Source: Halarcobacter sp. (GTDB lineage Bacteria; Campylobacterota; Campylobacteria; Campylobacterales; Arcobacteraceae). From it: a stretch of DNA of 64,000 bases. The position numbers were made by a program, and so were the translations under genes. The stretch lies in NCBI GenBank assembly GCA_050296315.1, contig JBNKRE010000006.1, forward strand, positions 89,760 through 153,759, written 5' to 3'. Of this stretch, positions 461-17,004 are shown piece by piece. Within the stretch, counting starts at the first letter, position 1. The number at the start of each line of letters is the position of its first letter. Under the pieces are notes generated by a model. That model was not told the origin of the DNA, did not search any database, and saw only the letters and a list, made by a program, of their open reading frames with translations.

Positions 461-3280
461 CTATGCTTTATAAATTTTTACAGCACATTTTTTAAAGTCT
501 GTTTGTTTTGACATAGGACAAGTCGCATCTAAACAAACTTTGTTGATGAAAACACTTTCATCGAACCATGGAACAAATACTAAACCTTTTGATGGTCTAT
601 TTCTTCCTCTAGTTTCAATTCTAGCTTTTACTTTTCCTCTTCTACTCTCTACCCAAGCTAATTCACCCTGTTTTACACCATATTTTTTAGCATCTTCTGG
701 GTGGATATAACATAATGCTTCTGGAACTGCTCTATATAATTCTGGAACTCTCATTGTCATAGTTCCACTATGCCAGTGTTCTAAAACTCTTCCTGTACAC
801 AACCAAACCGGATATTCAGTATCTGGCATTTCTGGTGGATCCATATATGGTCTTGCAAAGATTTTTGCTTTGTTTTTTAATGCTTTTTTAGTTTTATCTT
901 TTACTCCATTTAAGTCACCACTTGGCAATGCTTTTGCTAATGTTCCATAGAAAGCATGAGTATTATTTGTCCCTGCTTCTTTTACAGCTTTAGCTGCATA
1001 TGGGTCATATTTAACATTAAATCTCCATTGAGTTTCTTTACCGTCAACAACAGGCCATTTAAGTCCTCTAACTTTGTGATATACATCAAATGGAGCTAAG
1101 TCATGACCATGCCCTCTTGTAAATGCCGCATACTCTTCAAATAGATATTTTTGGATAAAGAAACCATAACCTTCAAAAACTTTTCCGTCACTTCCAACTA
1201 CATTTCTGCTATCACCCATAGCCTCAGAGTTATCATATCCAGCTTGAATAGGATCTTCAGGGTCAAGTTTATAAGATTTTGCAACATCATTAGCAAAAAG
1301 AATATCAAATAGAGTAGTATCTTCTTTATATCCCATAGCTTTTGCTTTTTCAATTACACTAGGAAGAGCCTCTTTTCTAGGTCCAGATGGAGCATATTCT
1401 CCCCAAACATCTTTTACTGTAAATCTTTTTGATAATTCAACCCATTGCCAAGTATCTGACATAGACTCACCTACAGGTAAAACTTGTTGTCTCCAGTGTT
1501 GAGTTCTTCTTTCTGCATTTCCATAAGCTCCCCATTTTTCATAAATCATCGCTGATGGTAAAATAAGGTCTGAAACTTTTGCTGAAATTCCTGGGTAACC
1601 ATCAGATGTAACAATAAAGTTATCCATTTCACGTGCAGCTTTAATCCAATGTGTAGCACTTGCAGAATCTTGGTAAGGGTTACATACATTTACCCACGCA
1701 AATTTAACAAGTCCATCTTCTATTCCTCTGTGGATTGCCATAATATGTTGTTTACCGACACCATTTAAAGTTCCTTGTGGAACCATCCATTTTTTCTCTG
1801 CAATACTTCTGTGTTTTGGATTTGCTACCATCATATCAGCAGGTAGTCTGTGTGTAAAAGTACCAACTTCTCTTGCAGTACCACATGCACTTGGTTGTCC
1901 TGTTAAAGAAAAGGCACCAGAACCAGGAAGTGCTTGTTTGTTTAATAAAAAGTGAACATTGTATGATAAAGTGTTTACCCATGTTCCTCTTGTATGTTGG
2001 TTCATACCCATTGTCCAGAAAGATACTATTTTTCTTCCTTTTTCAATATATAAAGAAGCTAATGTTTTAAGCTTTTTCTTAAACTCTTCAATATTTTCAT
2101 CAGGATTACCTTTAGAGATTTTAGCAACATAATCAAGAGTATATGGTTCTAAAGATTTTTTATAATCTTCAAATGAAATTTCCCAGTGTTTTAATGTTCC
2201 AGCTGTATGTTTCATTACATCCCCAGCTTTATATCCATAAGGAGCTAATGCAGGAGCTTCATTTTCAGAAACAATAGTTGTCATCTCTTTTGAGATTATC
2301 TCCATCTCTTTATCTGTGTATTTACCAGATTTTAAAGATTTTTCACCATCTCTTCTTAATCCATAACCAATATTAACTGGACCTGCTGCAAATATCATAT
2401 TTTTCTTAACAAAATCCCAATCAATTGCTTCTGGATGATTAAATACTATTTCATGAGCAATATAGTTCCAAATAGCTAAGTCTGTATTTGGAGTAAAAAT
2501 AATCTCAATATCAGCCAAATCAGAAGTTCTATGTCTATATGTAGACATATTGATTACTTTTACTCTATCAGGAGCAGATAGTTTTCTATCAGTTACTCTT
2601 GACCACAAAATAGGGTGCATCTCAGCCATATTTGAACCCCATGTAACAACAGTATCTGTAATCTCAATATCATCATAACACCCACTTGGTTCATCTACAC
2701 CAAATGTTTGATAAAACCCTACAACTGCCGATGCCATACAGTGTCTTGCATTTGGATCAATTGCATTTGATCTAAATCCAGCTTTCATCAATTTTTGTGC
2801 AGCATATCCTTCCATAATAGTATATTGTCCAGAAGCAAAGATACCAACACCTTCAGGTCCACTTGCCTTTAAAGCTTTTTTGATATGAATCTCCATCTCA
2901 TCAAAAGCTCTTTTCCAAGAAACCGGGGCAAATTTTCCATTTTTGTCAAATTCACCTTTTGAATTAACTCTTAATAAAGGTTGTTTCAATCTATCCGCAC
3001 CATACATGATTTTAGCGTTAAAATAACCTTTAATACAGTTAAGTCCTCTATTTACTGGTGCAGCTGGGTCACCTTTTACAGCAACTATTCTTCCATTTTT
3101 AGTTGCTAACATGATACCACAACCTGTACCACAGAACCTACAAGCTGCTTTATCCCATCTCCATCCACTTTCTGCTTGTTCAGCATTTGCTTTTAGCTGT
3201 GCAGGTACACCCATTCCAACTGCTGCTGCTGCACTTGCAGCTGCTGAACTTTTAAGAAAGTCTCTTCTTGAAAGTGACAT
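461..3280 (-). CDS. napA: Periplasmic nitrate reductase catalytic subunit
   Basis: Tat signal [15 protein letters not shown] [4Fe-4S] motif, NARHCMASA Mo-ligand region, [13 protein letters not shown]; 939 aa. Confidence 0.98.
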
Positions 3281-3342
3281 TATTCTCTCCTTTTATAAAT
3301 TTATTTACAATGAAAGTCTAACACTTAAGAGACTATATTTAT

Positions 3343-3356
3343 TTGACTTAGGTCAA
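3343..3356 (-). promoter_or_regulatory. Nss/FNR-type box upstream of napA
   Basis: TTGACTTAGGTCAA; minus-strand extended -10 (TGT)TAGACT at 3315-3320, 22 nt away. Confidence 0.8.
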
Positions 3357-3490
3357 GTTACTATTAATTTATATTTATAAGTTTTATATTAGGTCGAAAT
3401 TATTTAATATAATTAATTATTTAGTTGCTTTTAAATTTAATTTATTTAAGTTAATATATATAAAATTTTTATTTTTAGGAGGATTGGAAG

Positions 3491-5860
3491 ATGTTAAAGA
3501 AACTATCTATAAAGCAAAAACTAGTTTTAATTATGATGATACCGCTAACTGTTGTTATATTTTTATCAGCAAAACTGGCCTATGACTCATATATAAAAAA
3601 TATAAACTTAGATAGGATTCAGAAAATTGTTATTTTATCTACTAAAATAAGTGCCTTAGTTCATGAAACACAAAAAGAAAGAGGTATGACAGCTGGTTTT
3701 CTTGGTAGTAAAGGGGTAAAGTTTTCTGATGCACTTCCAAAACAAAGAGAAAATACAAATCAGAAAAAAGAGGCTTTGTTATCTTTTTTAGAAAGTTTTA
3801 ATATAAAAGATTATGATGAAGAGTTTCAATTAGTAATTAACAATGCCCTAGAGCAGTTAAAAGAAATAAATAGTATCAGAGATAAAGTCTCTTCTCAAAA
3901 CATAGTTACATCTGATGCAATAGCTTATTATACAAAAATGAATGGACTTTTTATAAATGCTATTGGGGCTTCAATACATTTATCTCAAAGTGCAAGTTTA
4001 TCTCAAAAACTTACAGCATATACAAACTTTTTATTATCAAAAGAGAGAGCAGGAATTGAAAGAGCAGTTGGCTCTAATACTTTTGCTAGAGATAATTTTG
4101 CAGAAGGGATGAAGTTAAAGTTTATAGACCTTGTTTCAAAACAAGATGGTTATATTGATTCTTTTATGAAAGTTGCAACACATGAAGCAAAAGTTTTTTT
4201 CAAAGATACCTTAAAGGGTGAAGGAGTTGATGAAGTAAATAGAATGAGAAAACTCCTTTTTACAAAAGATTCTGATTTTGGTATAGACTCAAAATATTGG
4301 TTTGACACAATTACCAAAAAAATCAATTTATTAAAAAAGGTTGAAGATTATTTAGCTGATGAAATATTAAAATCAGCAAATGAAGAACAAAGTAAAACTT
4401 TTATAGAAACGTTGATTTTTGCAATTATGACCACTATAGGTATAGCACTTACTTTAATATTGGCAAGAACAATTGCTTTTACTATCTTAATTGATGTTAA
4501 TGATGTAAAAAAAGGTTTAGATGATTTCTTTGCCTTTATAAATTTTGAAAAAGATGATTTATCATTGATAAATATAGAATCAGAAGATGAATTTGGACAA
4601 ATGTCACGTATAATAAATAAAAATATTGAAAATACAAAGGTAAATATCCAAACAGATAAAGATTTAATCAAAGAAACAATTCAAGTTGCAGATAAGATTA
4701 GTAAAGGACATTTAAGTTCTAGAATACAAAAACATTCAAACAATCCGCAATTGAATGAATTAAAAAATATTATTAATGAGATGTTAAATACTATGCAAGG
4801 GAATATTGAAAGAATAATTGATGTATTAACAGCTTATTCAAAACTAGATTATAGACAAAAAGTTGAGAAAGGAAACCTTGAAGGTACTTTATCAAAACTA
4901 TGTGATGATGTAAATATACTTAGAGATGCTATCACTAAAACTTTAATTAATAACAAAAAAAATGGTATGATTTTAAGTCAAAACTCTCGGACACTTACTA
5001 TGAATTTAAGTGAGTTATCAAATGCTGCAAATACACAAGCAGCTTCATTGGAAGAAACTGCTGCTTCACTTGAAGAGATAACATCAACACTAAAAATAAA
5101 TACTGAATCAACTTCTCAAATGGCAAAATATGGTGAAAGAGTTAAAGATTCTGTAAAAATTGGACATGATTTAGCTAATGAAACAGTAAAATCTATGGAA
5201 GAGATTAATAAACAAACTACAGCAATAACAGAAGCGATCACAGTAATTGACCAAATTGCTTTTCAAACAAATATTTTATCTTTAAATGCTGCTGTTGAAG
5301 CTGCAACTGCTGGTGAAGCAGGAAAAGGTTTTGCAGTTGTTGCACAAGAGGTTAGAAACTTAGCAAGTAGATCAGCCGAAGCTGCAAAAGAGATAAAATC
5401 TATTGTAGAAAATGCTCAATTAAAAACAAATGATGGGAAAATAATAGCATCAAATATGATTAAAGGTTATGATGAATTAAATGACAATATTACTAAAACC
5501 CTTCAATTTATTGATGATGTGGCAAATTCAAGTAGAGAACAAGAAAGAGGTATTCTTCAAATAAATGATGCAGTTAATCAATTAGATGAACTTACTCAAA
5601 GAAATGCTCAAAATACTGTAAATGCTGATGCAATCGCTAAAAAGACAGAGGTTATTTCAAATATTATTGTGGATGATGCAAATTCAAAAGAGTTTGATGG
5701 TAAAGATAGTATTGATATGAGAGATAAAGCAGTTAATGAGAATTTTACAGGAGTAGAAAGAAGAAGTGTGGAAAGAGAGATAAAACAAAATAAAGAAGTG
5801 TATACAAAAGTTAAAAAGACTCCTAAAAAAACTGAAGCAGATGAATGGGATAGTTTTTAA
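3491..5860 (+). CDS. Methyl-accepting chemotaxis protein with NIT (nitrate/nitrite-sensing) domain
   Basis: Two TM segments, periplasmic HETQKERG and KERAGIERA NIT-type motifs, MCP hairpin IAFQTNILSLNAAVEAATAGEAGKGFAVVA, C-terminal EWDSF. Confidence 0.9.
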   Translation: MLKKLSIKQKLVLIMMIPLTVVIFLSAKLAYDSYIKNINLDRIQKIVILSTKISALVHETQKERGMTAGFLGSKGVKFSDALPKQRENTNQKKEALLSFLESFNIKDYDEEFQLVINNALEQLKEINSIRDKVSSQNIVTSDAIAYYTKMNGLFINAIGASIHLSQSASLSQKLTAYTNFLLSKERAGIERAVGSNTFARDNFAEGMKLKFIDLVSKQDGYIDSFMKVATHEAKVFFKDTLKGEGVDEVNRMRKLLFTKDSDFGIDSKYWFDTITKKINLLKKVEDYLADEILKSANEEQSKTFIETLIFAIMTTIGIALTLILARTIAFTILIDVNDVKKGLDDFFAFINFEKDDLSLINIESEDEFGQMSRIINKNIENTKVNIQTDKDLIKETIQVADKISKGHLSSRIQKHSNNPQLNELKNIINEMLNTMQGNIERIIDVLTAYSKLDYRQKVEKGNLEGTLSKLCDDVNILRDAITKTLINNKKNGMILSQNSRTLTMNLSELSNAANTQAASLEETAASLEEITSTLKINTESTSQMAKYGERVKDSVKIGHDLANETVKSMEEINKQTTAITEAITVIDQIAFQTNILSLNAAVEAATAGEAGKGFAVVAQEVRNLASRSAEAAKEIKSIVENAQLKTNDGKIIASNMIKGYDELNDNITKTLQFIDDVANSSREQERGILQINDAVNQLDELTQRNAQNTVNADAIAKKTEVISNIIVDDANSKEFDGKDSIDMRDKAVNENFTGVERRSVEREIKQNKEVYTKVKKTPKKTEADEWDSF

Positions 5861-5870
5861 AAAAGATAAA

Positions 5871-5905
5871 AATATGGTTTAAAATTTAAATTTTTAAACC
5901 ATATT
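5871..5905. terminator. Bidirectional hairpin between convergent MCP and nnrS
   Basis: AATATGGTTTAAAA / TTTTAAACCATATT 14-bp inverted repeat. Confidence 0.6.
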
Positions 5906-7073
5906 AATTTTTTATTCTAAGTAAAGTTCTTGTATATCTAAAACTCCAAATTAAAAATAACACTATCCATAACATTGAACTTAGATGTAAAAATCCCATA
6001 AAAATATTTGAATCACTTAAAAATAAAAAAGAAGCAGTTATTCTAGATATAACAACTATTTGTGTTAATACAAATATAAATATTGTTAGTTTATCAGCTA
6101 CAATTTTTTGTGCAGGTATTGCATGACCCATTACAACTCTACTTCCAAAACCTATTAGTAAAGTTGTTATAAACCCCAAAGCAAAAATATGAAGGGCAAG
6201 TTTTAGAGAATAAAGATTAAAAATAGATTCTATAAATAAAACTATAAAACCAATTTCAAACCATATAAATGATAAGACAAGAATAGATATTATTGCAGGA
6301 GTTTTTTTATAAATATTTAATTTAAAAACAATATATCCAAAAAATATCATTGCAAAAAAAGTAACTATTTTAACTATTTGAAGTTCAAACTCTAAAGATA
6401 AACCTAAAATAAAAAAAATAGTTATAGAGATTTCTCTTATATATCTTGGTTTTTCCCATTGAGCTATTTGCATATATGCACTATAAAATGCAGGAACCAT
6501 TCTTAAAGCTACTAAAAATACTAAGCAGATTAGATAAGCAAAAAATATCAATAAAGATAAATTTGTTTGAAAAATCACTTCTAAAAGTAAAAATATAGCT
6601 CCAAACAAAAACACAAGATTTATAAAGATGCTATCTTTTTTATTTGGAATTTTCCCTTTTTTTATTATTTCATAAAAAGTTTTTACAAAATAAAGCATTG
6701 TAAAAGAGACTATAATTTTTCCTAAAATAGAAAAACCAATTAAAGATAAAATTACTCCAATTTGATAAGTAAACCAAGGGATAAGATAGCTGTTTTTACT
6801 TATAACTTCTGATGCATTGTATTTTGGTATTACAGTTATCAAAAATCCTAAAAAAGCATTTGTTAAAACTGCATAGTTTAAACCAAAACCATGAATCAAA
6901 GAGAATTCTAAAGGTATTTTTCCTAAAAATGAGATAAAAGTTAAAACCATTATTGTAATAGCAAAAAATATCGCACTTGTAAAATAAAGCTGATGGGCTT
7001 GAGAGCTAAATCTATCCCACCATTTTTCTTCAATAGGAACAAAAAAGTTGTTTGGATTTGTAGAGAAATTCAT
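5904..7073 (-). CDS. nnrS: NnrS family membrane protein (NO/nitrosative stress)
   Basis: Polytopic hydrophobic protein; HGFG..Y...LGFLITVIPKY, RMVPAF, LHIFALGF...GSRVVMGH patterns; context. Confidence 0.8.
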   Translation of the reverse strand: MNFSTNPNNFFVPIEEKWWDRFSSQAHQLYFTSAIFFAITIMVLTFISFLGKIPLEFSLIHGFGLNYAVLTNAFLGFLITVIPKYNASEVISKNSYLIPWFTYQIGVILSLIGFSILGKIIVSFTMLYFVKTFYEIIKKGKIPNKKDSIFINLVFLFGAIFLLLEVIFQTNLSLLIFFAYLICLVFLVALRMVPAFYSAYMQIAQWEKPRYIREISITIFFILGLSLEFELQIVKIVTFFAMIFFGYIVFKLNIYKKTPAIISILVLSFIWFEIGFIVLFIESIFNLYSLKLALHIFALGFITTLLIGFGSRVVMGHAIPAQKIVADKLTIFIFVLTQIVVISRITASFLFLSDSNIFMGFLHLSSMLWIVLFLIWSFRYTRTLLRIKN

Positions 7074-7115
7074 AATTTTTCCTTAAATAATATATTAAAA
7101 GCAATATAGCTATTT

Positions 7116-7130
7116 TAATAATCACTATCA
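7116..7130. promoter_or_regulatory. Fur/PerR-like 7-1-7 box in nnrS promoter
   Basis: TAATAAT-C-ACTATCA, 2 mismatches to TGATAATnATTATCA; abuts the Nss box. Confidence 0.4.
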
Positions 7131-7144
7131 TTGATATAAGTCAA
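7131..7144 (-). promoter_or_regulatory. Nss/FNR-type box upstream of nnrS
   Basis: TTGATATAAGTCAA; -10 TATATT at 7103-7108 (minus), 22 nt away. Confidence 0.8.
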
Positions 7145-7158
7145 TAAATTTAAAAATA

Positions 7159-7737
7159 TTAATCCTCTTTGGAGTCTTTTTTTGGATTGAGTATGAATTT
7201 ATTAAATTTTATTCCATCAGGGTAGTGTCTATGTTTTGAAATATTATTTACAACTAAAGCAATTACTAATAATATCACAGCACCAGTAGTGACAGGATAT
7301 AAAACATAGATAAAACCTAAATTATGAATATCATCACTTCCTAAAACTGCTATTAATGCAGTTGCTCCTCCTGGAGGATGTAAGGTTAATGTTAGTTGCA
7401 TTACAAAAATAGAAGTTGCAACTGCAAAAGCAGAACAAAAAAGTAAATTTCCAAAAAAAAGTTTATATGAAACAACACCAATTATAGCAGATAGTATATG
7501 TCCACCAAGAAGATTTCTAGGTTGTGCCAAAGGGGAATGAATAGCTCCATAAACTAAAACAGCACTTGCTCCAAATGAACCTATAACTAATCCTAAGTCT
7601 TCATCTCCTAAAATACCTCTATGAAAAAGTGTTATAAATAATATTCCAAGAAAAGAACCTATCCAAGACCAGATAATATTTGATCTTTCAAGAGGTTCAG
7701 TATTTATTTTTTTAAATTGTTTAAAAAATTTTTTCAT
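7159..7737 (-). CDS. HPP family membrane protein (possible nitrite transporter)
   Basis: SFGASAVL, SPLAQPRNLLGGH and LHPPGGATAL motifs; ATG at 7737 preferred, in-frame TTG at 7758 is an alternative. Confidence 0.9.
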   Translation of the reverse strand: MKKFFKQFKKINTEPLERSNIIWSWIGSFLGILFITLFHRGILGDEDLGLVIGSFGASAVLVYGAIHSPLAQPRNLLGGHILSAIIGVVSYKLFFGNLLFCSAFAVATSIFVMQLTLTLHPPGGATALIAVLGSDDIHNLGFIYVLYPVTTGAVILLVIALVVNNISKHRHYPDGIKFNKFILNPKKDSKED

Positions 7738-7756
7738 ATGCCTCTTTTTTATATTC

Positions 7757-7783
7757 AAAAAAAGCCCTCAAAAAAGAGGGCTT
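7757..7783 (-). terminator. Intrinsic terminator inside the HPP 5' leader
   Basis: Minus strand AAGCCCTC-TTTTTT-GAGGGCTT followed by TTTTT. Confidence 0.7.
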
Positions 7784-7892
7784 AATGATTTAATTTTAAT
7801 TAATTTTTATATTGTTAAATCTAAAAGATCACCATATATTGATTCTACTTTATGTAGTTTTTTTAGTATATATAAAAATAAAAAGAAAAAAT

Positions 7893-7906
7893 TAGACTTA
7901 GGTCAA
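7893..7906 (-). promoter_or_regulatory. Nss/FNR-type box (1 mismatch) upstream of HPP leader
   Basis: TAGACTTAGGTCAA; -10 TATACT at 7865-7870 (minus), 22 nt away. Confidence 0.7.
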
Positions 7907-7927
7907 GAAATAGAGTTTTATAGCTAT

Positions 7928-7941
7928 TTGATTTGAATCAA
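7928..7941 (+). promoter_or_regulatory. Perfect FNR-consensus box upstream of Cys-rich microprotein
   Basis: TTGATTTGAATCAA; TATAAT at 7964-7969, 22 nt away. Confidence 0.85.
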
Positions 7942-7994
7942 TATAAAAGTAGTAATTTTTAAGTATAATCAATTTATAAACTTAGGGGTAGATT

Positions 7995-8183
7995 ATGTTT
8001 TTTAATCTTTTTAAAAAAAAGAAGTATATTAAGATGAAACTTCCAAAATATGTATGTAAACATTGTAAATATACTTGCAAAAATTGTGATATGCTTTTTT
8101 GTTATTCTTGTCATATGAATGAAGCTAACCCTTGTCCTAAATGTGGAAAAAGAAATATTGACTATCAAAAAAATGATTCTTAG
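7995..8183 (+). CDS. 62-aa Cys-rich putative metal-binding microprotein (4 CxxC)
   Basis: CKHC-x3-CKNC-x4-CYSC-x7-CPKC; AGGGG RBS; dedicated promoter. Confidence 0.75.
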   Translation: MFFNLFKKKKYIKMKLPKYVCKHCKYTCKNCDMLFCYSCHMNEANPCPKCGKRNIDYQKNDS

Positions 8184-8881
8184 TAATCAAAATTTCTATA
8201 CTTGATTTTAAAACTATACTTATTGTCAAATTCTCTAAAAAACTCTTTAGTTATAGAATTTTTAGGAATATTTGATAAAGTAGGAACAGAATTTAAACAT
8301 TTTTGAATATAGTAAGTTTTCGTGTATTTATATTTTTGTAAAACTTCTAAAATCTCATTTATATCATTTTTTGAAAAAAGTGAATTATGGTATGTAGTTC
8401 TTACTTCAAAATCCAAATTTGAATCTATTAATAGTTTTAAACTCTCAACAACTTTTTCATACTCTTTGTTTTTTGTAATTTTAAAAAAGTTTGTTTTAGA
8501 GGTTTTAAAATCCAATGCAATAAAATCTAATAAATTGTTTTTTATAAGCTTTTCTAAAACTTGTGGTTTGAGACCATTTGTATCAAGTTTTATTTTAAAA
8601 TCCATTGATTTTATATATTTACAAATATCATATATCTCTTTATTTAAAGTTGGCTCTCCACCTGATAAAACTACACCTTTTAGAAGATTTTCTCTTTGTT
8701 TCAAAAAAGGGATTAGTTGTTCAAAACTATATTTGCCTTTTTTTAAAACAATATCAGGATTATGGCAATAATCACACCTCATATTACAACCGTTAAACCA
8801 GATAATACAAGATGGATATTGCTCAAAATCCAGAAGAGTAAAAGGGGCTAAACTATCAATTATCTTTTTTTTGCTCCACAA
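8180..8881 (-). CDS. nrdG: Anaerobic ribonucleotide reductase activating radical-SAM enzyme
   Basis: GCNMRCDYCHN CxxxCxxC, GVVLSGGEPT, KLDTNG; downstream of nrdD; TTG start uncertain. Confidence 0.92.
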   Translation of the reverse strand: MWSKKKIIDSLAPFTLLDFEQYPSCIIWFNGCNMRCDYCHNPDIVLKKGKYSFEQLIPFLKQRENLLKGVVLSGGEPTLNKEIYDICKYIKSMDFKIKLDTNGLKPQVLEKLIKNNLLDFIALDFKTSKTNFFKITKNKEYEKVVESLKLLIDSNLDFEVRTTYHNSLFSKNDINEILEVLQKYKYTKTYYIQKCLNSVPTLSNIPKNSITKEFFREFDNKYSFKIKYRNFDY

Positions 8882-8996
8882 AATATACCCTTTGTTTATG
8901 TTCAGCTTTTTTTCCTATATTAAAACTCTCAACTGGTCTATGATAACCCATAACTCTAGTATAAACAATACATTTTGTTCTCTTTTTTTCTTCCAT
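8856..8996 (-). CDS. 46-aa stand-alone NrdD C-terminal glycyl-radical domain
   Basis: MEEKKRTKCIVYTRVMGYHRPVESFNIGKKAEHKQRVYF...; RVxGY glycyl-radical motif; own RBS (TAAGGAG, 6 nt before ATG) overlapping the nrdD stop. Confidence 0.88.
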   Translation of the reverse strand: MEEKKRTKCIVYTRVMGYHRPVESFNIGKKAEHKQRVYFVEQKKDN

Positions 8997-9006
8997 CTTA
9001 TTCTCC

Positions 9007-11103
9007 TTAGGCAGATTTTGTATTGTGTTGAATCTCTTCATCACATTTTGGGCAATATTCATGCTCCCCATTTAAATAACCATGAACTGGACAAATTGAA
9101 AATAAAGGTGTCAAAGTTATATATGGTAATTTAAAATTTTCAAGAACTGTTTTTAAAAATAGTTTTGTAGATTCTGTTGAACTTAGTTTTTCACTCATAT
9201 ATAGATGCAGTACCGTTCCACCTGTATATTTAGTTTGTAAAATATCTTGTTTTTGTAAGGCTTCAAATGGATCATCTGTAAAATCAACTGGTAGTTGAGA
9301 AGAGTTTGTATAGTAGATTTCATTATCAAATCCAGCTTGAAGAATATCTGGATATCTTTTTTTATCCTCTTTTGCAAATCTATATGTCGTACCTTCTGCT
9401 GGTGTTGCTTCAAGGTTATACAAATTTCCACTTTTTTCTTGAAAAGATGTGATTTTTTCTCTTATGAAATCTAAAATTTCAGAAGAGAACTCTATGCCAT
9501 AATCACTTGTAATATCTTCTTGGTCATTGGTAAAATTTCTTATCATCTCATTTATACCATTTACACCAATAGTTGAGAAGTGGTTATTAAAACTTTTTAA
9601 ATATCGTTTTGTATATGGATATAAGCCTTGTTCAAATAGTTTGTTTATAATAACTCTTTTTTTCTCCAAGGTATTAAATGAAAGCTCTAAAAGTTTATTT
9701 AATTCATCATATAGTTTTTGTTTATTGTTTTTATATAAGTATCCAAGTCGTGCCATATTTATAGTAACCACTCCAATACTTCCTGTCATCTCAGCACTTC
9801 CAAATAAACCATTTCCTCTTTTTAACAATTCTCTTAAATCTAGTTGTAATCTACAACACATACTTCGTACAGCTCCTGGCTTATATGCATTTGGATTTTC
9901 TACTTTTTCTCCTTGTTCATTTGTCATATATTGACTTCCTACAAAGTTTTGAAAATAGCTTGAACCAATTTTTGCACTATTTTCTAAAAGAATATCTACA
10001 TTTTCTCCATCCCAATCAAAATCTTCAGTTATATTTACTGTGGGAATAGGGAAGGTAAAGGGTTGTCCATTTTTGTCCCCGTGGGTCATAATCTCATAAA
10101 AGGCTTTGTTTATTAGATTCATCTCTTTTTGAAAATGTTTAAAAGTCAATTCAGTTAATTTATTTACCCCTTTGTCTTTTAGTTTTTCTTTTATGTTTTC
10201 ATTCTCTTCAAATTGTTCAAATAGATGTTTATCGTTGTATGTTGGAAACTGCTCTTTTAAATCTGATGGTACATTCCAATCAAGTGTGATATTTGTAAAT
10301 GGACTTTGTCCCCATCTTGATGGAACATTTAGATTATAAATAAAACTAGTAAGTGCTTTTTTAACCTCTTTATATGATAAATCATCCATAAAAACATAAG
10401 GTGCCAAATAGGTATCAAAAGAGCTAAAAGCTTGTGCTCCAGCCCATTCGCTTTGTAAAATACCTAAAAAATTTGCCATTTGACTAAGAGCTTGTCTAAA
10501 ATGTTTTGCAGCTTTGCTTTCTACTCTTCCTCTTACTCCGTTAAACCCTTCATTTAATAATTGTCTTAAACTCCAACCTGCACAATATCCAGTAAGACAA
10601 TCTAAATCATGAATATGGATATCTCCATTTCTATGGGCAACTCCTTCTTTAACATCATAAACTTTATCAAGCCAATAGTTTGCGATAACTTTTCCTGCAA
10701 GATTGTTTACAAGTCCAGAGTTTGAGTAACCAGTGTTTGCATTTGCATTTATTCTCCAGTCATTTTTATTTATATACTCTTCTACACTTTTAGTTGAATC
10801 AACAAAAGTTGTATCTTGGTTGAGTCCTAGTATATGTTCCCTTTGCATCTTATGCAAAAATCTATATGTAATAAATGATTTCATTACACTAAAATATCTA
10901 TACTCAAACAATGATTTTTCAATATAATCTTGAATATCTTCCACATTATGATTTTTATTTTCATGTAAGTTTTGTATTACTGAAACAAAGATTATTTTAT
11001 TGTAAGTAATCTCTACACTTCTAAATGCTTTTTTTATAGCATCCTCTATTTTATAAGCTTTAAATGGTTCTTTTGAACCATCTCTTTTTATTACAAAATC
11101 CAT
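9007..11103 (-). CDS. nrdD: Class III (anaerobic) ribonucleoside-triphosphate reductase, lacking the C-terminal glycyl-radical loop
   Basis: N-terminal ATP cone (VIKRDG), IHIHDLD, GYCAGWS, SMCCRL finger loop, YNLEATPAEG, C-terminal CPVHGY..YCPKC; no RxxGY. Confidence 0.95.
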   Translation of the reverse strand: MDFVIKRDGSKEPFKAYKIEDAIKKAFRSVEITYNKIIFVSVIQNLHENKNHNVEDIQDYIEKSLFEYRYFSVMKSFITYRFLHKMQREHILGLNQDTTFVDSTKSVEEYINKNDWRINANANTGYSNSGLVNNLAGKVIANYWLDKVYDVKEGVAHRNGDIHIHDLDCLTGYCAGWSLRQLLNEGFNGVRGRVESKAAKHFRQALSQMANFLGILQSEWAGAQAFSSFDTYLAPYVFMDDLSYKEVKKALTSFIYNLNVPSRWGQSPFTNITLDWNVPSDLKEQFPTYNDKHLFEQFEENENIKEKLKDKGVNKLTELTFKHFQKEMNLINKAFYEIMTHGDKNGQPFTFPIPTVNITEDFDWDGENVDILLENSAKIGSSYFQNFVGSQYMTNEQGEKVENPNAYKPGAVRSMCCRLQLDLRELLKRGNGLFGSAEMTGSIGVVTINMARLGYLYKNNKQKLYDELNKLLELSFNTLEKKRVIINKLFEQGLYPYTKRYLKSFNNHFSTIGVNGINEMIRNFTNDQEDITSDYGIEFSSEILDFIREKITSFQEKSGNLYNLEATPAEGTTYRFAKEDKKRYPDILQAGFDNEIYYTNSSQLPVDFTDDPFEALQKQDILQTKYTGGTVLHLYMSEKLSSTESTKLFLKTVLENFKLPYITLTPLFSICPVHGYLNGEHEYCPKCDEEIQHNTKSA

Positions 11104-11160
11104 AAATAGAACCTTTTAAATCTGTTTTGACAATTGTATTAAAGATTTTTTTTTAAAGGT

Positions 11161-11174
11161 ATGACTAGGGTCAA
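11161..11174 (-). promoter_or_regulatory. Nss/FNR-type box (1 mismatch) upstream of nrdD
   Basis: ATGACTAGGGTCAA; -10 TACAAT at 11133-11138 (minus), 22 nt away. Confidence 0.75.
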
Positions 11175-11202
11175 AATTGATTGTAAATATAAAAATTTAT
11201 AC

Positions 11203-11216
11203 TTGATGTATGTCAA
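11203..11216 (+). promoter_or_regulatory. Nss/FNR-type box upstream of moaA
   Basis: TTGATGTATGTCAA; TAAAAT at 11239-11244, 22 nt away. Confidence 0.8.
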
Positions 11217-11261
11217 GACAAAAATTTTTAGTTTGTAATAAAATTTCATTAGGAGATTAAG

Positions 11262-12242
11262 ATGTTAATAGATAATTACAATAGAAAAATAGATTATTTA
11301 AGGGTCTCAGTAACTCAAAGATGTAATTTTAGATGTCAATATTGTATGCCAGAAAAACCTTTTGAGTGGATACCAAAAGAGGATTTACTTTCATATGAGC
11401 ACATGTTCAAATTTATAAAAGTAGCTATATCAAATGGAATAAAGAAGATTAGAATCACAGGTGGAGAACCATTAGTCAGAGATGATTTAGATAAATTTAT
11501 ATCTATGATAAATGAATATGACCCAACAATAGATTTAGGTCTTACTACAAATGGATATCTACTAAAAACACAAGCAAAAAAATTAAAAGAAGCAGGCTTA
11601 AAAAGAATCAATATCTCTTTAGATTCTTTAGAAAGAGAAACTTTTTGGTACTTAACCAAAAAAGATGTTTTGTCAAAAGTTTTAGAAGGGATAGATGAAG
11701 CTATAAAGGTGGGTATCAAAGTTAAAATAAATAGCGTAGTTTTAAAAAAGATAAATGAAAATGAGATCTTATCTTTATATGAGTTTGCAAAACAAAGAGA
11801 TATTCAAATTAGATTTATAGAGTATATGGAAAATGAGATGGCTTATAATCAGTTAAAAACTCTAACAAGTCAAGAGATTTTAAATATCATCTCTACAAAA
11901 TATAGTTTTGAAACAGTTCAAAACTGTGTAAATTCTGCTGCAAAACTTTATGAAGATAATCAAGGTTATGTTTTTGGAATAATTGAGCCATATGATGATT
12001 CTTTTTGTTCAACATGTAATAGAATTAGATTATCAGCAGAAGGGGATTTAATTCCATGTTTATATTATGAAGATTCTATTAATATAAAAGAATCAATCTT
12101 AAGTAAAAAAGATTTGGAAAATGTTTTGTATAAAGTAGTTCAAAATAGACCTGAAAAAAACAAATGGACTAAAAACAATCTACAATTAGAATCTTCAAAA
12201 GAAAATATCTCTTCAAGAGCTTTTTATTATACAGGTGGATGA
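11262..12242 (+). CDS. moaA: GTP 3',8-cyclase (molybdenum cofactor biosynthesis)
   Basis: YLRVSVTQRCNFRCQYC, RITGGEP, CSTCNRIRL...PCL, C-terminal GG. Confidence 0.96.
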   Translation: MLIDNYNRKIDYLRVSVTQRCNFRCQYCMPEKPFEWIPKEDLLSYEHMFKFIKVAISNGIKKIRITGGEPLVRDDLDKFISMINEYDPTIDLGLTTNGYLLKTQAKKLKEAGLKRINISLDSLERETFWYLTKKDVLSKVLEGIDEAIKVGIKVKINSVVLKKINENEILSLYEFAKQRDIQIRFIEYMENEMAYNQLKTLTSQEILNIISTKYSFETVQNCVNSAAKLYEDNQGYVFGIIEPYDDSFCSTCNRIRLSAEGDLIPCLYYEDSINIKESILSKKDLENVLYKVVQNRPEKNKWTKNNLQLESSKENISSRAFYYTGG

Positions 12243-12249
12243 TAAGTCA

Positions 12250-12263
12250 TTGACCTGTATCAA
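12250..12263 (+). promoter_or_regulatory. Nss/FNR-type box upstream of hcp
   Basis: TTGACCTGTATCAA; TACCAT at 12286-12291, 22 nt away. Confidence 0.8.
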
Positions 12264-12323
12264 TGTTTCAAGTATTTGATTTTTATACCATTACACCTTA
12301 ATTTTATTTTTAAGGATTTTTAA

Positions 12324-13649
12324 ATGAGTATGTTTTGCTATCAATGTGAAATGAGTACACCAAATGGTTGTGGTTCTACAGGAGCTAGTGTTGGAACTTG
12401 TGGTAAAGATGAAAATCTTGCAAGATTACAAGATACTATGATTTTTGGATTAAAAGGTTTAAGTGCGTATAGAGAACATTTAAATGAGATAAACCCAAGT
12501 GCTACAAAAAATGTAGATGATGTTATGAGTGAAACCTTATATTTCACACTTACAAATGTAAACTTTAATTTTGATGATCATATAAAACAACTTATGAAAG
12601 TTGGAAGTGCAGGTGTTGAGGTGATGGATAAACTTTCAAATGCACATACAGGAAAGTTTGGTATTCCAACACCTGTAAAAGTTAGTCAAAATAAGGTTGA
12701 AGGAAAAGCTATTCTTGTAAGTGGACACAATTTAGAGATGTTAGAAAAACTTTTAATAGCAACAGAAAATAAAGGGATAAATATCTATACTCACTCAGAG
12801 ATGTTACCAGCTCATGGGTATCCAGAATTGAAAAAATATTCTCATTTAAAAGGAAATATTGGAAAAGCATGGTTTGACCAAGCTGAATTGATGAAAAGAT
12901 TTAAAGGTACTTTTGTAGTAAATACAAACTGTATTGTGCCACCAAAGAAAAATGCAACTTATGTTGATAGAGTTTTTACGTATAAGATTGTTGGAATTGA
13001 AGGTGGTACACAAATAGTTGACGATAACTTTGATGAACTAATTGAAAAAACTTTACAATGTGAAGATACAAACTTTGATGATAATCTGTTTTTAACTACA
13101 GGACACCACTATAAAACAATATTAACATTAGCTCCTCAAATTTTAGAAGCAATTAAAGAGGGAAAAATTAGACAGTTTTTTGTAATAGCAGGTTGTGATG
13201 CACCAGGGAAAGCTGGAAACTATTATAGACAGATAGCTGAAAACTTACCAGAAGATTGTGTTATTATCACTTCAAGTTGTGGAAAATTTAGATTCAATGA
13301 TATTGACTTTGGTGAGATTGAAGGAACGGGTATTCCTAGATATTTAGACCTTGGACAATGTAATGATAGTAACGGTGCTGTTGAAATAGCAAAAGCAGTG
13401 AGTGAAGCTTTAAATACACCAATCAACGATTTACCAATATCAATAGTTCTTTCTTGGATGGAACAAAAAGCTGTAATTATCTTATTGGCACTATTTAGTT
13501 TGGGTGTAAAAAATATCTATCTTGGACCTAAGCCACCACAGTTTGTAAATGAAGATATATTTAATTTTTTAGCTCAGAATTTTAATTTACATCTAACAGG
13601 AGATGCTTTAGAGGATTTAAAAAATTTATTACTTCCAAAAGTAGCATAA
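12324..13649 (+). CDS. hcp: Hybrid cluster protein (hydroxylamine/NO reductase), short form
   Basis: MFCYQC, ILVSGHNL, YTHSEMLPAH, NCIVPP, GCD, SCGK, GQCNDS, LSWMEQKA. Confidence 0.95.
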   Translation: MSMFCYQCEMSTPNGCGSTGASVGTCGKDENLARLQDTMIFGLKGLSAYREHLNEINPSATKNVDDVMSETLYFTLTNVNFNFDDHIKQLMKVGSAGVEVMDKLSNAHTGKFGIPTPVKVSQNKVEGKAILVSGHNLEMLEKLLIATENKGINIYTHSEMLPAHGYPELKKYSHLKGNIGKAWFDQAELMKRFKGTFVVNTNCIVPPKKNATYVDRVFTYKIVGIEGGTQIVDDNFDELIEKTLQCEDTNFDDNLFLTTGHHYKTILTLAPQILEAIKEGKIRQFFVIAGCDAPGKAGNYYRQIAENLPEDCVIITSSCGKFRFNDIDFGEIEGTGIPRYLDLGQCNDSNGAVEIAKAVSEALNTPINDLPISIVLSWMEQKAVIILLALFSLGVKNIYLGPKPPQFVNEDIFNFLAQNFNLHLTGDALEDLKNLLLPKVA

Positions 13650-13675
13650 ATAAAAGGGTTGATTCCCTTTTATTT
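13648..13675. terminator. Bidirectional terminator between hcp and cytochrome c
   Basis: AAATAAAAGGG-TTGATT-CCCTTTTATTT. Confidence 0.7.
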
Positions 13676-13957
13676 ACCAATTTTTTGTGCGATTGCTTCA
13701 ATATCAGCATCAGATAAAGCTGCTACTTGACCTTTCATCAAACCTTTCATAACTCCACCATATGAACCATCTTTATAACCTTTCATAGCACTTACAATTT
13801 CAGCTTTAGTCATATCTTTGATGATTTTAGATTTCCCCATCGCTGCTTTTTCACCAGTTGCACCGTGACATGCAACACATCTAGCATACACATCTGCTGA
13901 TGCATTAACTGCCAATAATCCTAATAATATAACTGATGTAGTTAAAATTTTTTTCAT
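13670..13957 (-). CDS. Monoheme cytochrome c (c553-like)
   Basis: Signal peptide ending ASA, CVACH heme motif, distal Met (GVMKGLM). Confidence 0.92.
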   Translation of the reverse strand: MKKILTTSVILLGLLAVNASADVYARCVACHGATGEKAAMGKSKIIKDMTKAEIVSAMKGYKDGSYGGVMKGLMKGQVAALSDADIEAIAQKIGK

Positions 13958-14008
13958 GTTAATCCTTTTTGTTTTTTGAAAGTTTAATTAAAAAATGTTA
14001 TATTGTCT

Positions 14009-14022
14009 TTGATTTAAGTCAA
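14009..14022 (-). promoter_or_regulatory. Nss/FNR-type box upstream of cytochrome c
   Basis: TTGATTTAAGTCAA; -10 TAAACT at 13981-13986 (minus), 22 nt away. Confidence 0.78.
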
Positions 14023-14032
14023 ATTTATTTAA

Positions 14033-14046
14033 TTGATTTAAATCAA
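14033..14046 (+). promoter_or_regulatory. Perfect FNR-consensus box upstream of Crp/Fnr gene (autoregulation)
   Basis: TTGATTTAAATCAA; TATAAT at 14069-14074, 22 nt away. Confidence 0.85.
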
Positions 14047-14109
14047 TTAAATAATGAAGCAATTTGAGTATAATTTTTAAAATAACTTTAAAAGTAAGTA
14101 AAGATAAGT

Positions 14110-14772
14110 ATGAATAATATCAAAGATATAATAAAATCGATACCACTATTTACAGCTTTGCCAGATGATGAAATTGATTTGTTGTCTACAATGTCTCACG
14201 TATCAAAGTACAATGCAAACACAGTACTTTTTTATGAGTCAGAAACAACAGATGAATTACTTTTTTTGGTTGAAGGCTTACTAAAAGTATATAAAATAGA
14301 TAAGTATGATAATGAGATATTTTTATATTATGTCTACCCAAACTCTATGATATCAGAATTATCAAATCTAAATGACAATAAAATCAACTGTTTTTCAAAT
14401 AGTGAGTTTTTAAGAGATAGTGTGATGCTTTGTGTGAATTTTAAAAAATTTAAAGAAGAGTTCTTAAGTCAAAATGATTTGGTACAAAAGTTTATCAATG
14501 AACTTATTTATAAAAATCAACAACTTCAATGTATTGTAAATAGAGAATTGGTTTTTGATGCAACTTCAAAAGTTGCTTTTATGCTTACAAATGATTTGGA
14601 TATGTTTAATCACCTAAAAAGAAATGAAGTATCATTGTTGCTACATATACAGCCAGAAACTTTATCAAGGGTATTAAAAAGATTGGTTAGAAATGGTACA
14701 ATATCGATTGATAAAGGGATTGTATCTATTGAAAATGGTGATGAATTAAAAAGTATCTATTTAGGATTATAA
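14110..14772 (+). CDS. Crp/Fnr family regulator, NssR/DNR-like (no FNR Cys cluster)
   Basis: cNMP-type sensing domain, HTH with ETLSR recognition helix; 220 aa. Confidence 0.92.
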   Translation: MNNIKDIIKSIPLFTALPDDEIDLLSTMSHVSKYNANTVLFYESETTDELLFLVEGLLKVYKIDKYDNEIFLYYVYPNSMISELSNLNDNKINCFSNSEFLRDSVMLCVNFKKFKEEFLSQNDLVQKFINELIYKNQQLQCIVNRELVFDATSKVAFMLTNDLDMFNHLKRNEVSLLLHIQPETLSRVLKRLVRNGTISIDKGIVSIENGDELKSIYLGL

Positions 14773-14773
14773 G

Positions 14774-15763
14774 ATGAAAAAAGAGATTAGTGTTAGTGGG
14801 AAAATAAAGATTTTAGGGGCATTACTAATATCTACAGTATTTTTTGTAATTTGTGTATCTTTATATTTAAATTTAAAAAATTCAAAAGATGCAACTATTA
14901 TAAATATTGCTGGTAAACAAAGGATGCTTACACAAAAAATTACTAAAAATATCTTTTATTTATACCAAACAAAATCAAATAATTTTACACAAATTGATAA
15001 TGCAATAGAAGAGTTTAATTATGGATTAACAACTCTAAAAGATGGAAATGAGTTATTAAATATATCTGCTGCTCCAACAGATATAATAAGTAATCAAATA
15101 TCAAAAGTTATAGTTTTATGGAATACTTTTGAAAAAAATACAAAAGAGTTTAAAGAAGCTATTTTAAAAGATGATATTCAAAAACAAAACTCTATATTAA
15201 AATATATGTATGAAACAAATACTATACTTTTAGAAGAAGTTGATAAAGTTGTAAGTTTATATACAAGATATATTGAAGAAAAAACTGCATTTATAAAAAA
15301 CTTCCAATATACTTCCTTTGCATTAATGTTTATGTTGACAATTTATTCTTTGGTGCAATTAAAACAAATTGAGTCTCATGCAAAAGAGTTTATGTCAAAA
15401 TATAATCAATTAAATTCGGGTGAGATAACTAATTTAGAACCTATACACGTAGAGAGTGAAAAAGAGTTTGTAGAGATGGCAAACAATATGAATAATTTTA
15501 TAAATAAAGTAAATTCTGCTATGAATTATTCAGAATCAGCTCTTGAACAATCAAAATTAGCATCAGAAAAATTGTTAGATTTAACAGATGAGTTTGAAAA
15601 TATTATTGATGAGTTAGGAAATAAATCAGAAATAGTAAAAGAGATAAATAGAAGTGAAGATATCGCTATCGAGTCATCAGAAAATCTACTTAAGACTACT
15701 AAAAAACTAAATGATTTAAAAACACAACTAGATTTACTATTAAAAAACTGTCAAAATAAATAA
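14774..15763 (+). CDS. Membrane protein with NarX/PilJ-type nitrate-sensing domain, no kinase or MCP output domain
   Basis: TM1, P-box-like INIAGKQRMLTQKI, TM2, then about 130 aa helical tail without H-box or MCP hairpin. Confidence 0.8.
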   Translation: MKKEISVSGKIKILGALLISTVFFVICVSLYLNLKNSKDATIINIAGKQRMLTQKITKNIFYLYQTKSNNFTQIDNAIEEFNYGLTTLKDGNELLNISAAPTDIISNQISKVIVLWNTFEKNTKEFKEAILKDDIQKQNSILKYMYETNTILLEEVDKVVSLYTRYIEEKTAFIKNFQYTSFALMFMLTIYSLVQLKQIESHAKEFMSKYNQLNSGEITNLEPIHVESEKEFVEMANNMNNFINKVNSAMNYSESALEQSKLASEKLLDLTDEFENIIDELGNKSEIVKEINRSEDIAIESSENLLKTTKKLNDLKTQLDLLLKNCQNK

Positions 15764-15840
15764 GCCAAGAAGGAAGATAAAAAAAATATTAGTTTAGGAA
15801 TTGTTTTTTAATTATAGGAGGAGAACCTTCTTGGTTATTT
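15752..15840 (-). ncRNA. Candidate Nss-controlled small RNA with anti-Shine-Dalgarno loop
   Basis: Box 15875-15888 plus TAAAAT 15847-15852; CCAAGAAGG/CCTTCTTGG closing stem; loop contains UUCUCCUCCU; boundaries inferred. Confidence 0.35.
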
Positions 15841-15874
15841 GATAAAATTTTAACTGAAATTTTTAGTAAATAGT

Positions 15875-15888
15875 TTGACTAAAATCAA
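15875..15888. promoter_or_regulatory. Nss/FNR-type box in a convergent intergenic region
   Basis: TTGACTAAAATCAA; -10-like hexamers 22 nt away on both sides (TAAAAT minus, TATATT plus). Confidence 0.65.
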
Positions 15889-15914
15889 ATATCTAAACTT
15901 TTTCAAATATTATA

Positions 15915-16928
15915 TTATTTCCATTTAACTTTTTTAAATACTTCTACAGCTTTATGATTATAGTATCCAAGGTATTCCATATTTATTTTATCTTCTTTAA
16001 AATTCCCCCATGATTTTAATAATTCTAAGGGTTCAACTGCTTCATTGATTGGGTATTCATAAGAAGCTTCTGCATAGATTTTCTGAGCTTTAGGACTTAC
16101 CATAAACTCCATGAATTTGATTGCATTTTCTTTATTTTTGCTATATTTTACAACACCCATTCCTGAAATATTTATATGACTACCTCTTTCGTTTTTTCCT
16201 TGGTCAGGAAAAAATATACCAATATCATCAGTAAGTTCAACTTCATGAGGTTTTTTTGAATTTATCAATTTAGCAAGATAATAAGTATTTATAATTGCAA
16301 CATCACCTCTATTATATGATATAGATTTTATTTGGTTAGTATCACCTTCTAATGGGCTTCTAGCTAGGTTTTTTATAATACCTTTTGCCCATTTTGTTGT
16401 CTCTTTTTCACCTTCGTATGCTATAAGTGCTGCTAACAATGACATATTATACATTTCGGTTGATTTTCCTACAACAATCTTTTTTTTCCATTTTGGTGTT
16501 GCTAAATCTTTATATGTTGATAATTGGGATGGAGAAACTTTCTTTTTATTATATGCTATAACTCTAGCTCTTTTCGTAAGAGCATACCAATAACCCTTTT
16601 TTTGTCTTAAATGACTTGGTACAATCTTCTCTAGTTTTTCTGATCTTATTGGTTGTAATAAATCATTATATTGTGCATAAACAAGCCTTCCTGCATCAAC
16701 TGTGATTAATACATCAGCATCTGTATCTTTTCCATCTGATTGAATCTCTGTAAGCACTTCTGATGAGTCCAATTTAGTTACATTTATTTTTATACCAGTT
16801 TCTTTTTCAAACATTTCAAATAATTGTTTATCTGCAAAATAGTATCTGTGAGAATAGACATTTAATACATTTGATGCATTTAATGATGAAAATAATATTA
16901 ATGCACCTATAATTAATTTTAAAATCAT
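15915..16928 (-). CDS. Fe(III) ABC transporter substrate-binding protein (FutA/FbpA-like)
   Basis: Signal peptide, LNVYSHRY, DVLITVDAGRL, WYALTKRARV, INTYY, HINISG; Fur-like box upstream. Confidence 0.88.
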   Translation of the reverse strand: MILKLIIGALILFSSLNASNVLNVYSHRYYFADKQLFEMFEKETGIKINVTKLDSSEVLTEIQSDGKDTDADVLITVDAGRLVYAQYNDLLQPIRSEKLEKIVPSHLRQKKGYWYALTKRARVIAYNKKKVSPSQLSTYKDLATPKWKKKIVVGKSTEMYNMSLLAALIAYEGEKETTKWAKGIIKNLARSPLEGDTNQIKSISYNRGDVAIINTYYLAKLINSKKPHEVELTDDIGIFFPDQGKNERGSHINISGMGVVKYSKNKENAIKFMEFMVSPKAQKIYAEASYEYPINEAVEPLELLKSWGNFKEDKINMEYLGYYNHKAVEVFKKVKWK

Positions 16929-16989
16929 TCTTATCCTTCATAAAAAAATTTTAGAACTATACAAATTTAATCTTAAATAATTATTAAAA

Positions 16990-17004
16990 TGATAATCACT
17001 ATTA
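16990..17004. promoter_or_regulatory. Fur-like box
   Basis: TGATAAT-C-ACTATTA upstream of the Fe-binding protein gene. Confidence 0.6.

Follow-up and report, generated by a model that had tools for sequence, protein, structure and literature searches.

A fixed 22-nt box-to-hexamer spacing marks putative class II Crp/Fnr promoters in a nitrate- and nitric oxide-related gene cluster of Halarcobacter

The window analyzed here, a 64,000-nucleotide (nt) stretch of a Halarcobacter sp. genome (C6:89760-153759, where C6 is contig JBNKRE010000006.1 of a 3.9-Mb assembly with 28% GC and 221 contigs), carries between positions 3343 and 15888 ten palindromic boxes of the TTGA-N6-TCAA type, each exactly 22 nt from a TAnnnT hexamer. 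We consider it highly probable that these ten sites are activator-dependent class II sigma-70 promoters of an Nss/Dnr-type regulon which extends past the cluster, and that the Crp/Fnr-family regulator encoded among them shares the boxes with a second reader, very probably a Crp/Fnr paralogue encoded elsewhere on the same contig (paralogue 2). The observation itself is real, statistically overwhelming, and deeply conserved.

Based on this observation, we propose a scheme for how the promoters would work. A dimeric Nss/Dnr-type Crp/Fnr regulator, having an E--SR recognition helix and lacking the Fe-S cysteine cluster of FNR, would bind TTGAY-N4-RTCAA centred at -41.5; the bound box would replace the -35 element, and the regulator would recruit RNA polymerase to a TAnAAT -10 hexamer exactly 22 nt downstream. 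The regulon would turn on periplasmic nitrate reduction (nap) and nitrite ammonification (nrfH), molybdenum cofactor synthesis (moaA, moaDE), functions against nitric oxide (NO) and nitrosative stress (hcp, nnrS, hemerythrin, YgbA-like), the putative nitrite transporter HPP, and the anaerobic ribonucleotide reductase (RNR). With nitrate/nitrite respiration, molybdenum cofactor, NO/nitrosative defence, and anaerobic RNR all represented, this content would fit a nitrate/NO-responsive Nss-type system. The local regulator (14110-14772), co-transcribed with a NarX-like protein, is one probable reader of the boxes, and paralogue 2 very probably reads them as well, as NssA, NssB, and NssC do in Wolinella.

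The boxes and their spacing

The original prediction named ten boxes, all of which are present; eight are exact, and the two at 7893 (TAGACTTAGGTCAA) and 11161 (ATGACTAGGGTCAA) carry one mismatch. The window contains 12 exact copies of TTGA-N6-TCAA, compared with 3.96 +/- 2.03 in shuffled sequence, and 12 was reached in 0 of 100 shuffles; 9 of the 12 fall inside 3343-15888. Each of the ten boxes has TAnnnT at exactly 22 nt, and the hexamers are the same as those first noted. TAnnnT turns up by chance at a given spacing next to about 4% of oriented boxes, and the chance of ten of ten at one spacing is about 1e-11, with either orientation allowed. If the hexamer is set as -12 to -7, the box extends from -48 to -35 with its centre at -41.5, which agrees with the class II geometry proposed from the start.

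Four further exact matches, at 11908 (absent from the original list), 26744, 43258, and 63424, are intragenic, have no hexamer, and read TTGAA/G...TTCAA, which is why the working consensus is TTGAY-N4-RTCAA. Genome-wide, this consensus gives 55 boxes (110 oriented), 8 of them inside the 12.5 kb of the cluster. The genome scan with the 22-nt spacing, which had been proposed as a check, found TAnnnT at 22 nt in 16 oriented boxes, compared with a mean of about 4.5 for each other spacing from 10 to 35 nt. A position weight matrix (PWM) built from the relatives' sites only was then run over the 3.9-Mb genome and a shuffled null: all ten sites rank within the genome's best 22 matches, and 9 matches of at least 20 bits were observed against 0 in the null (16 against 3 at 16 bits or more).

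For genome-wide boxes with one mismatch, the spacing rule alone gave no excess at 22 nt (93 against a background of about 90), and such sites therefore need an intergenic position, a PWM score, or orthologues to be credible. The boxes at 7893 and 11161 are intergenic and correctly oriented, and they score 19.7 and 15.6 bits. The number ten is partly curated, in that two more one-mismatch boxes, at 8813 and 10930, also have a hexamer at 22 nt; these are intragenic, and their number is about what chance predicts. Nine of the ten promoters face a downstream gene, and for eight the predicted 5' untranslated region is 11-29 nt long and ends in a ribosome-binding site. The flanks of the boxes share no similarity, and an Rfam scan of 3000-17000 returned nothing relevant.

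Conservation among relatives and extent of the regulon

We compared 29 loci around orthologues of the local regulator (41-78% identity, 455 kb in total) from Arcobacteraceae, Halarcobacter, Sulfurimonas, and others; one of them (L006), from the metagenome-assembled genome 'Arcobacter sp. isolate SZUA-449', is 100% identical to the regulator locus studied here. Of the 162 oriented exact boxes in these 29 loci, 72 have TAnnnT at exactly 22 nt; each of the other spacings accounts for about 8.6. The hexamer logo from 71 non-redundant sites of the relatives is TAnAAT (A in 58 and C in 13 at position 5), and T at -15 and G at -14 are enriched, each in about half of the sites. We read this logo and the T/G enrichment as the signature of genuine -10 elements.

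Gene by gene, the combination of box, 22 nt, and hexamer precedes napA in 14 of 16 related loci, moaA in 5 of 7, hcp in both loci that have it, and nnrS and the hemerythrin gene in three of three each. The other two napA loci (L015 and L022) do carry boxes, one of them with a napA-facing hexamer at 23 nt. For the cytochrome c gene, the combination lies directly upstream in three loci (L007, L008, and L010), the only ones we use, since the raw tally of 4/5 includes one indexing artefact. In a survey of 81 Arcobacteraceae genomes, 72 napA upstream regions were retrieved: 62 have an exact box at 22 nt, 5 have one at 23 nt, and 5 have none.

The original prediction described the ten sites as a complete local regulon, and this part does not hold, as other contigs carry at least seven promoters built in the same way. 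They precede nrfH (C23:4613), a 234-aa periplasmic protein gene divergent from nrfH (C23:4348), moaD-moaE (C4:367736), and the genes of a YgbA_NO-family protein (C2:416090), a hemerythrin-domain protein (C13:43621), a cupin (C14:19761), and a CopD-like membrane protein (C1:39131). The predicted regulon would thus be roughly half local, with a site total of about 17-20 in this genome. The class III RNR gene (nrdD) and the 62-aa microprotein gene, which the prediction had counted among the targets, are plausible members.

Four further candidates were rejected. At C1:23091, an exact box does have its hexamer at 22 nt, but the next open reading frame (ORF), for an FrdC-like cytochrome b, is over 320 nt away; those at C176:353, C12:78626, and C3:201237 are chance-like, since they lie on a short contig, fall within a gene, or lack a proper hexamer. 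The genome has two moaA genes, and only the window copy is boxed; the second (C6:286870-287838) lies 2.6 kb from paralogue 2.

Regulators, rival readings, and known systems

The local regulator is a Crp/Fnr-family protein of 220 aa (14110..14772, plus strand) with a cNMP-binding domain (PF00027) and an HTH_Crp_2 domain (PF13545). Its recognition helix reads PETLSR and so contains the ETLSR stretch noted earlier. Orthologues (42-78% identity) are found in 63 of 80 other family genomes; the best 120 homologues are named only generically ('Crp/Fnr family transcriptional regulator'). The genome encodes five Crp/Fnr paralogues, four with an E--SR helix. Paralogue 2 (C6:283672-284298) is 31% identical to the local protein, has the same PETLSR helix and zero cysteines, and has relatives in 66 of 80 other family genomes, where they often adjoin nap; two other paralogues have the helices RESASR and RETISR. 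No box lies within 5 kb of the other four paralogue genes. Paralogue 2 itself lies after a siroheme-synthase-like gene.

The distribution of regulators and napA boxes across the family is informative here. All six napA genomes with the local type only (G005, G014, G019, G028, G050, and G055) have the napA box at 22 nt. In the seven with only a paralogue-2-related regulator at 37-57% identity (G004, G011, G015, G026, G035, G057, and G059), it stands at 22 nt in six and at 23 nt in one, and genomes with both regulator types also carry it. The four with neither regulator (G008, G029, G047, and G063, all of one genus, 1.3-1.5 Mb) have no napA box, which suggests that regulator and napA site were lost together during genome reduction in that genus. 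This phyletic pattern appears to tie the box to Nss-type regulators in general. Since either paralogue class alone accompanies boxed promoters, the assignment of all ten sites to the local protein, as originally made, is unproven; with five paralogues in the genome and an identical PETLSR helix in paralogue 2, we find it unsupported. Joint control by both paralogues, as for NssA/B/C, seems the more likely picture.

Several points weigh against our proposal. The one-mismatch boxes at 7893 and 11161 have lower scores; the nrdD box is missing in one related locus (L023), and in the closest relative (L007) its hexamer stands at 23 nt. No product can be assigned to the box at 15875, which is also not conserved. 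G080, a regulator-positive genome that is 78% complete, has no box ahead of napA, and the genomes that lack both box and regulator belong to a single genus and so count as one evolutionary event.

Another possibility is that the two regulators divide the labour, perhaps as a cascade: the local type would prefer TTGAC-N4-GTCAA and paralogue 2 TTGAT-N4-ATCAA, and the T/A box before the local regulator gene would be read mainly by paralogue 2. C5/G10 are found in 43 of 65 napA boxes against 0 of 12 regulator-gene boxes (Fisher p 1.5e-5, not phylogeny-corrected). The napA boxes of local-type-only genomes have C5 in 5/6 and G10 in 6/6, and those of genomes whose sole regulator is a close orthologue of paralogue 2 (n = 5) have T5 in 4/5 and A10 in 4/5. 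However, the samples are small and phylogenetically non-independent, the two recognition helices are identical, and in the window most boxes combine the two types (C/A or T/G); we regard such a division as unlikely. Box variation by target may reflect affinity tuning or paralogue discrimination.

It is also conceivable that the local protein alone autoregulates and drives exactly the ten promoters as a closed local regulon. This would account for the clustering of 8 of the 55 genome boxes around its gene, for the box in its own promoter, for the absence of boxes within 5 kb of the other paralogues, and for the boxed napA of the six relatives that have only the local type. But promoters of the same design stand ahead of the nrfH, moaDE, YgbA_NO, hemerythrin, cupin, and CopD-like genes; the helix of paralogue 2 is identical; and paralogue-2 orthologues are the sole Nss-type regulator in G004, G011, G015, G026, and G035, all of which have a boxed napA. 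As for autoregulation, the local regulator's promoter does have a box, but that box is kept in only 11 of the 29 orthologous loci. Taking these together, we think a closed local regulon quite improbable.

A third alternative is that a true [4Fe-4S] FNR reads the boxes, in which case the signal would be anoxia and not nitrogen oxides. The box is identical to the FNR consensus of E. coli, and the genes found here (nap, nrf, hcp, nrdD, moa) resemble in content the FNR regulon of that species, which includes nrf, hcp, nrdDG, moa, and nap, although E. coli nap uses a class I site. The TTGAT-N4-ATCAA palindrome, the E--SR helix, and the overlap of -35 are likewise shared with E. coli FNR at its class II promoters, which are centred at -41.5, for example at dmsA and narG (Lamberg & Kiley 2000, as cited in PMC8139620). 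E. coli FNR, however, senses O2 through an N-terminal [4Fe-4S] cluster, and the corresponding Cys-x2-Cys-x5-Cys motif is absent from the N-termini of all five paralogues, with paralogue 2 free of cysteine altogether. A search of solved structures with the local regulator returned only remote CRP-type matches (E about 1e-7). An oxygen-sensing FNR regulon is therefore very improbable. Finally, although TAnnnT is common in a genome of 28% GC (about 4% per position), the idea that the sites are AT-rich palindromes arisen by chance, or copies of a dispersed repeat with no promoter function, is effectively refuted by the ten-of-ten spacing, the box count never reached in shuffles, the nine promoters that face a gene, the family-wide conservation, and the dissimilar flanks.

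The Nss/Dnr-type reading, which we prefer, recalls several described systems. TTGA-N6-TCAA is indeed an Nss-type site, as the original prediction stated: PMC11539149 uses it as the Nss consensus and credits Kern & Simon 2016. In W. succinogenes, nap, nrf, and nos are upregulated jointly by NssA, NssB, and NssC (PMC6682613, PMC8139620); several paralogues thereby act at shared promoters, and the signals are nitrate, NO, and N2O. The likeness to our case lies in Campylobacterota Crp/Fnr paralogues without the FNR cluster, in the box, and in nap and nrf as targets. The predicted membership here is wider (nrdDG, moaA/moaDE, HPP, nnrS, hcp, and the microprotein), and the regulator is coupled to a NarX-like membrane protein, whereas PMC6682613, PMC8139620, and PMC11539149 mention none for Wolinella. 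In Nitrosophilus labii HRV44, exact boxes start 48-49 nt upstream of the RNA-seq-inferred transcription start sites (TSSs) of napA, norE, and nosB (PMC11539149), in agreement with a box start of -48 here if the TSS lies 7 nt past the hexamer. Its regulator gene adjoins nap, and it is a thermophilic denitrifier with two regulators and a few sites; the present genome has about 17-20 sites, five paralogues, and an ammonifier-type set (nrfH).

In the same phylum, NssR of C. jejuni is reportedly an NO-responsive Crp/Fnr activator with a small globin regulon and a different half-site. In C. jejuni, neither nap nor nrf was found to have NssR sites upstream (PMC8139620). The Dnr/NNR/NnrR regulators of denitrifiers share with our case an FNR-like box, nnrS and NO-detoxification targets, and the lack of a cysteine cluster; they differ in being proteobacterial and in controlling nir/nor, and their sequence similarity to the proteins here is only remote. 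The local regulator thus appears to work like an Nss/Dnr-type activator, a class assigned by its features and not by orthology to named Nss proteins.

The gene next to the regulator encodes a protein of 329 aa with two transmembrane segments (14774..15763, plus strand), starting 1 nt past the regulator stop codon and translationally coupled to the regulator. It has a PilJ/NarX-like periplasmic domain (PF13675, E 5.4e-18) with the segment INIAGKQRMLTQKI, and has neither a kinase nor a methyl-accepting chemotaxis protein module. An orthologue follows the regulator in 26 of the 29 related loci, in none with a promoter of its own; for this reason, the protein merits attention in its own right. The NarX-like protein is a candidate nitrate input to the Crp/Fnr activator. 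Going further, we tentatively raise, as possible rather than probable, an uncharacterised nitrate pair in which a kinase-less, P-box-bearing sensor of the NarX type would control the coupled Crp/Fnr activator by direct contact, while paralogue 2 would add an NO input and box positions 5 and 10 would tune which of the two acts. How Nss regulators sense nitrate is stated as unknown in PMC8139620, and such a sensor-activator pair, if real, would explain it.

The mechanism as a whole is a known class II Crp/Fnr design, and the regulon, although real, is of the ordinary FNR/Nss type. Because this mechanism is textbook, what the analysis offers is annotation and a pointer to the regulator-sensor pair rather than a new principle. 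It gives Arcobacteraceae a concrete regulon model, family-wide in scope, for the metabolism of nitrate, nitrite, and NO. A review reports no functions for Arcobacter regulators beyond those it describes and states that A. butzleri has no FNR/CRP homologues (PMC6682613); set against the latter statement, 65 of the 81 family genomes encode such a homologue. The rigid 22-nt rule can also serve as a search key for promoters, for small genes such as that of the 62-aa CxxC protein, and for possible small RNAs in AT-rich genomes.

The individual promoters and the orphan box

The region 461-16928 encodes NapA (minus strand), a NIT-domain chemoreceptor, NnrS, an HPP-family membrane protein, a 62-aa cysteine-rich ORF, an NrdG-like radical-SAM activase, NrdD, MoaA, a 441-aa hybrid cluster protein, a 95-aa cytochrome c, the 220-aa Crp/Fnr regulator, the 329-aa PilJ/NarX-like protein, and a convergent ABC substrate-binding protein; these assignments were confirmed with Pfam and NCBIfam profiles.

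The napA promoter (3315..3356, minus strand) consists of the box TTGACCTAAGTCAA at 3343-3356 and, 22 nt away, TAGACT at 3315-3320, with a predicted TSS near 3308 and the ATG at 3280; its PWM score of 28.4 bits is the highest in the genome. Divergent from napA lies the gene of the NIT-domain (nitrate/nitrite-sensing) methyl-accepting chemotaxis protein (3491-5860, plus strand). Because the box it shares with napA has no hexamer at 22 nt on its side, the chemoreceptor gene is probably not a class II target. The nnrS promoter (7103..7144, minus strand) combines the box TTGACTTATATCAA with TATATT at 22 nt, a predicted TSS near 7096, and an ATG at 7073.

At the promoter of HPP, of the nitrite-transporter family (7865..7906, minus strand, 19.7 bits), the one-mismatch box TTGACCTAAGTCTA has TATACT at 22 nt and a predicted TSS near 7858. 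The transcript would have a leader of about 100-120 nt (within 7737-7870, minus strand) with a GCCCTC-TTTTTT-GAGGGC hairpin and a T run directly before the ribosome-binding site AAAAAAGAGG, and the ATG is at 7737; attenuation by this hairpin is possible. The microprotein promoter (7928..7969, plus strand) has the box TTGATTTGAATCAA and TATAAT at 22 nt, with a predicted TSS near 7976, ahead of the ORF at 7995-8183. The encoded 62-aa protein has four CxxC motifs and homologues of 48-68% identity in 26 of 80 other family genomes, from 10 genera, by which we take the ORF to be a real conserved gene; a box with the 22-nt spacing precedes its orthologues in 4 of 11 loci.

The nrdD promoter (11133..11174, minus strand) has the one-mismatch box TTGACCCTAGTCAT, TACAAT at 22 nt, a predicted TSS near 11126, and an ATG at 11103. 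Its 15.6 bits are the lowest score of the ten; in L007 the corresponding position holds an exact box, TTGACCTATGTCAA, whose TAAAAT hexamer stands at 23 nt. NrdD itself looks split: a 698-aa ORF (9007-11103, minus strand) covers the NRDD profile only to position 534 of 562, and an overlapping 71-aa ORF (8856-9071, minus strand) matches the C-terminal glycyl-radical end of NrdD models. Either a frameshift or a radical domain that is encoded separately could account for this.

On the plus strand, the moaA promoter (11203..11244) has the box TTGATGTATGTCAA, TAAAAT at 22 nt, a predicted TSS near 11251, and an ATG at 11262, and the hcp promoter (12250..12291) has the box TTGACCTGTATCAA, TACCAT at 22 nt, a predicted TSS near 12298, and an ATG at 12324; the same TACCAT hexamer occurs in one of the two hcp orthologue loci. 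The hybrid cluster protein (12324-13649, plus strand) is a short form of 441 aa, whose alignment to the 522-position TIGR01703 model begins near position 121 and falls into two stretches. The promoter of the 95-aa cytochrome c gene (13981..14022, minus strand) has the box TTGACTTAAATCAA, TAAACT at 22 nt, a predicted TSS near 13974, and an ATG at 13957, and that of the regulator operon (14033..14074, plus strand) has the box TTGATTTAAATCAA, TATAAT at 22 nt, a predicted TSS near 14081, and an ATG at 14110.

The tenth, orphan box (TTGACTAAAATCAA, 15875-15888; 22.2 bits) lies between the 3' ends of convergent genes, in an element (15847..15916) with hexamers at 22 nt on both sides: TAAAAT at 15847-15852 on the minus strand and TATATT at 15911-15916 on the plus strand. 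The unannotated product once suggested for it could not be assigned. On the minus strand, the predicted RNA of about 90 nt would start near 15840 and consist essentially of a single long hairpin (CCAAGAAGG...CCTTCTTGG, z -3.3) with a U-rich tract behind it, the hairpin doubling as the terminator-like stem of the upstream gene; on the plus strand, a predicted RNA starting near 15923 would be antisense to the binding-protein gene. The intergenic sequence 15764-15914 has nothing similar in relatives or elsewhere in the genome, and the closest relatives have no box at this position, making the box genome-specific. In more distant relatives, the box found downstream of the regulator and sensor genes belongs to the promoter of napA or moaA, and in two Halarcobacter loci that box also has a minus-strand TATAAT at 22 nt and then a bidirectional terminator. 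The orphan box may therefore be a relic of an ancestral regulator-sensor-[box]-napA order, or it may be a small-RNA promoter.

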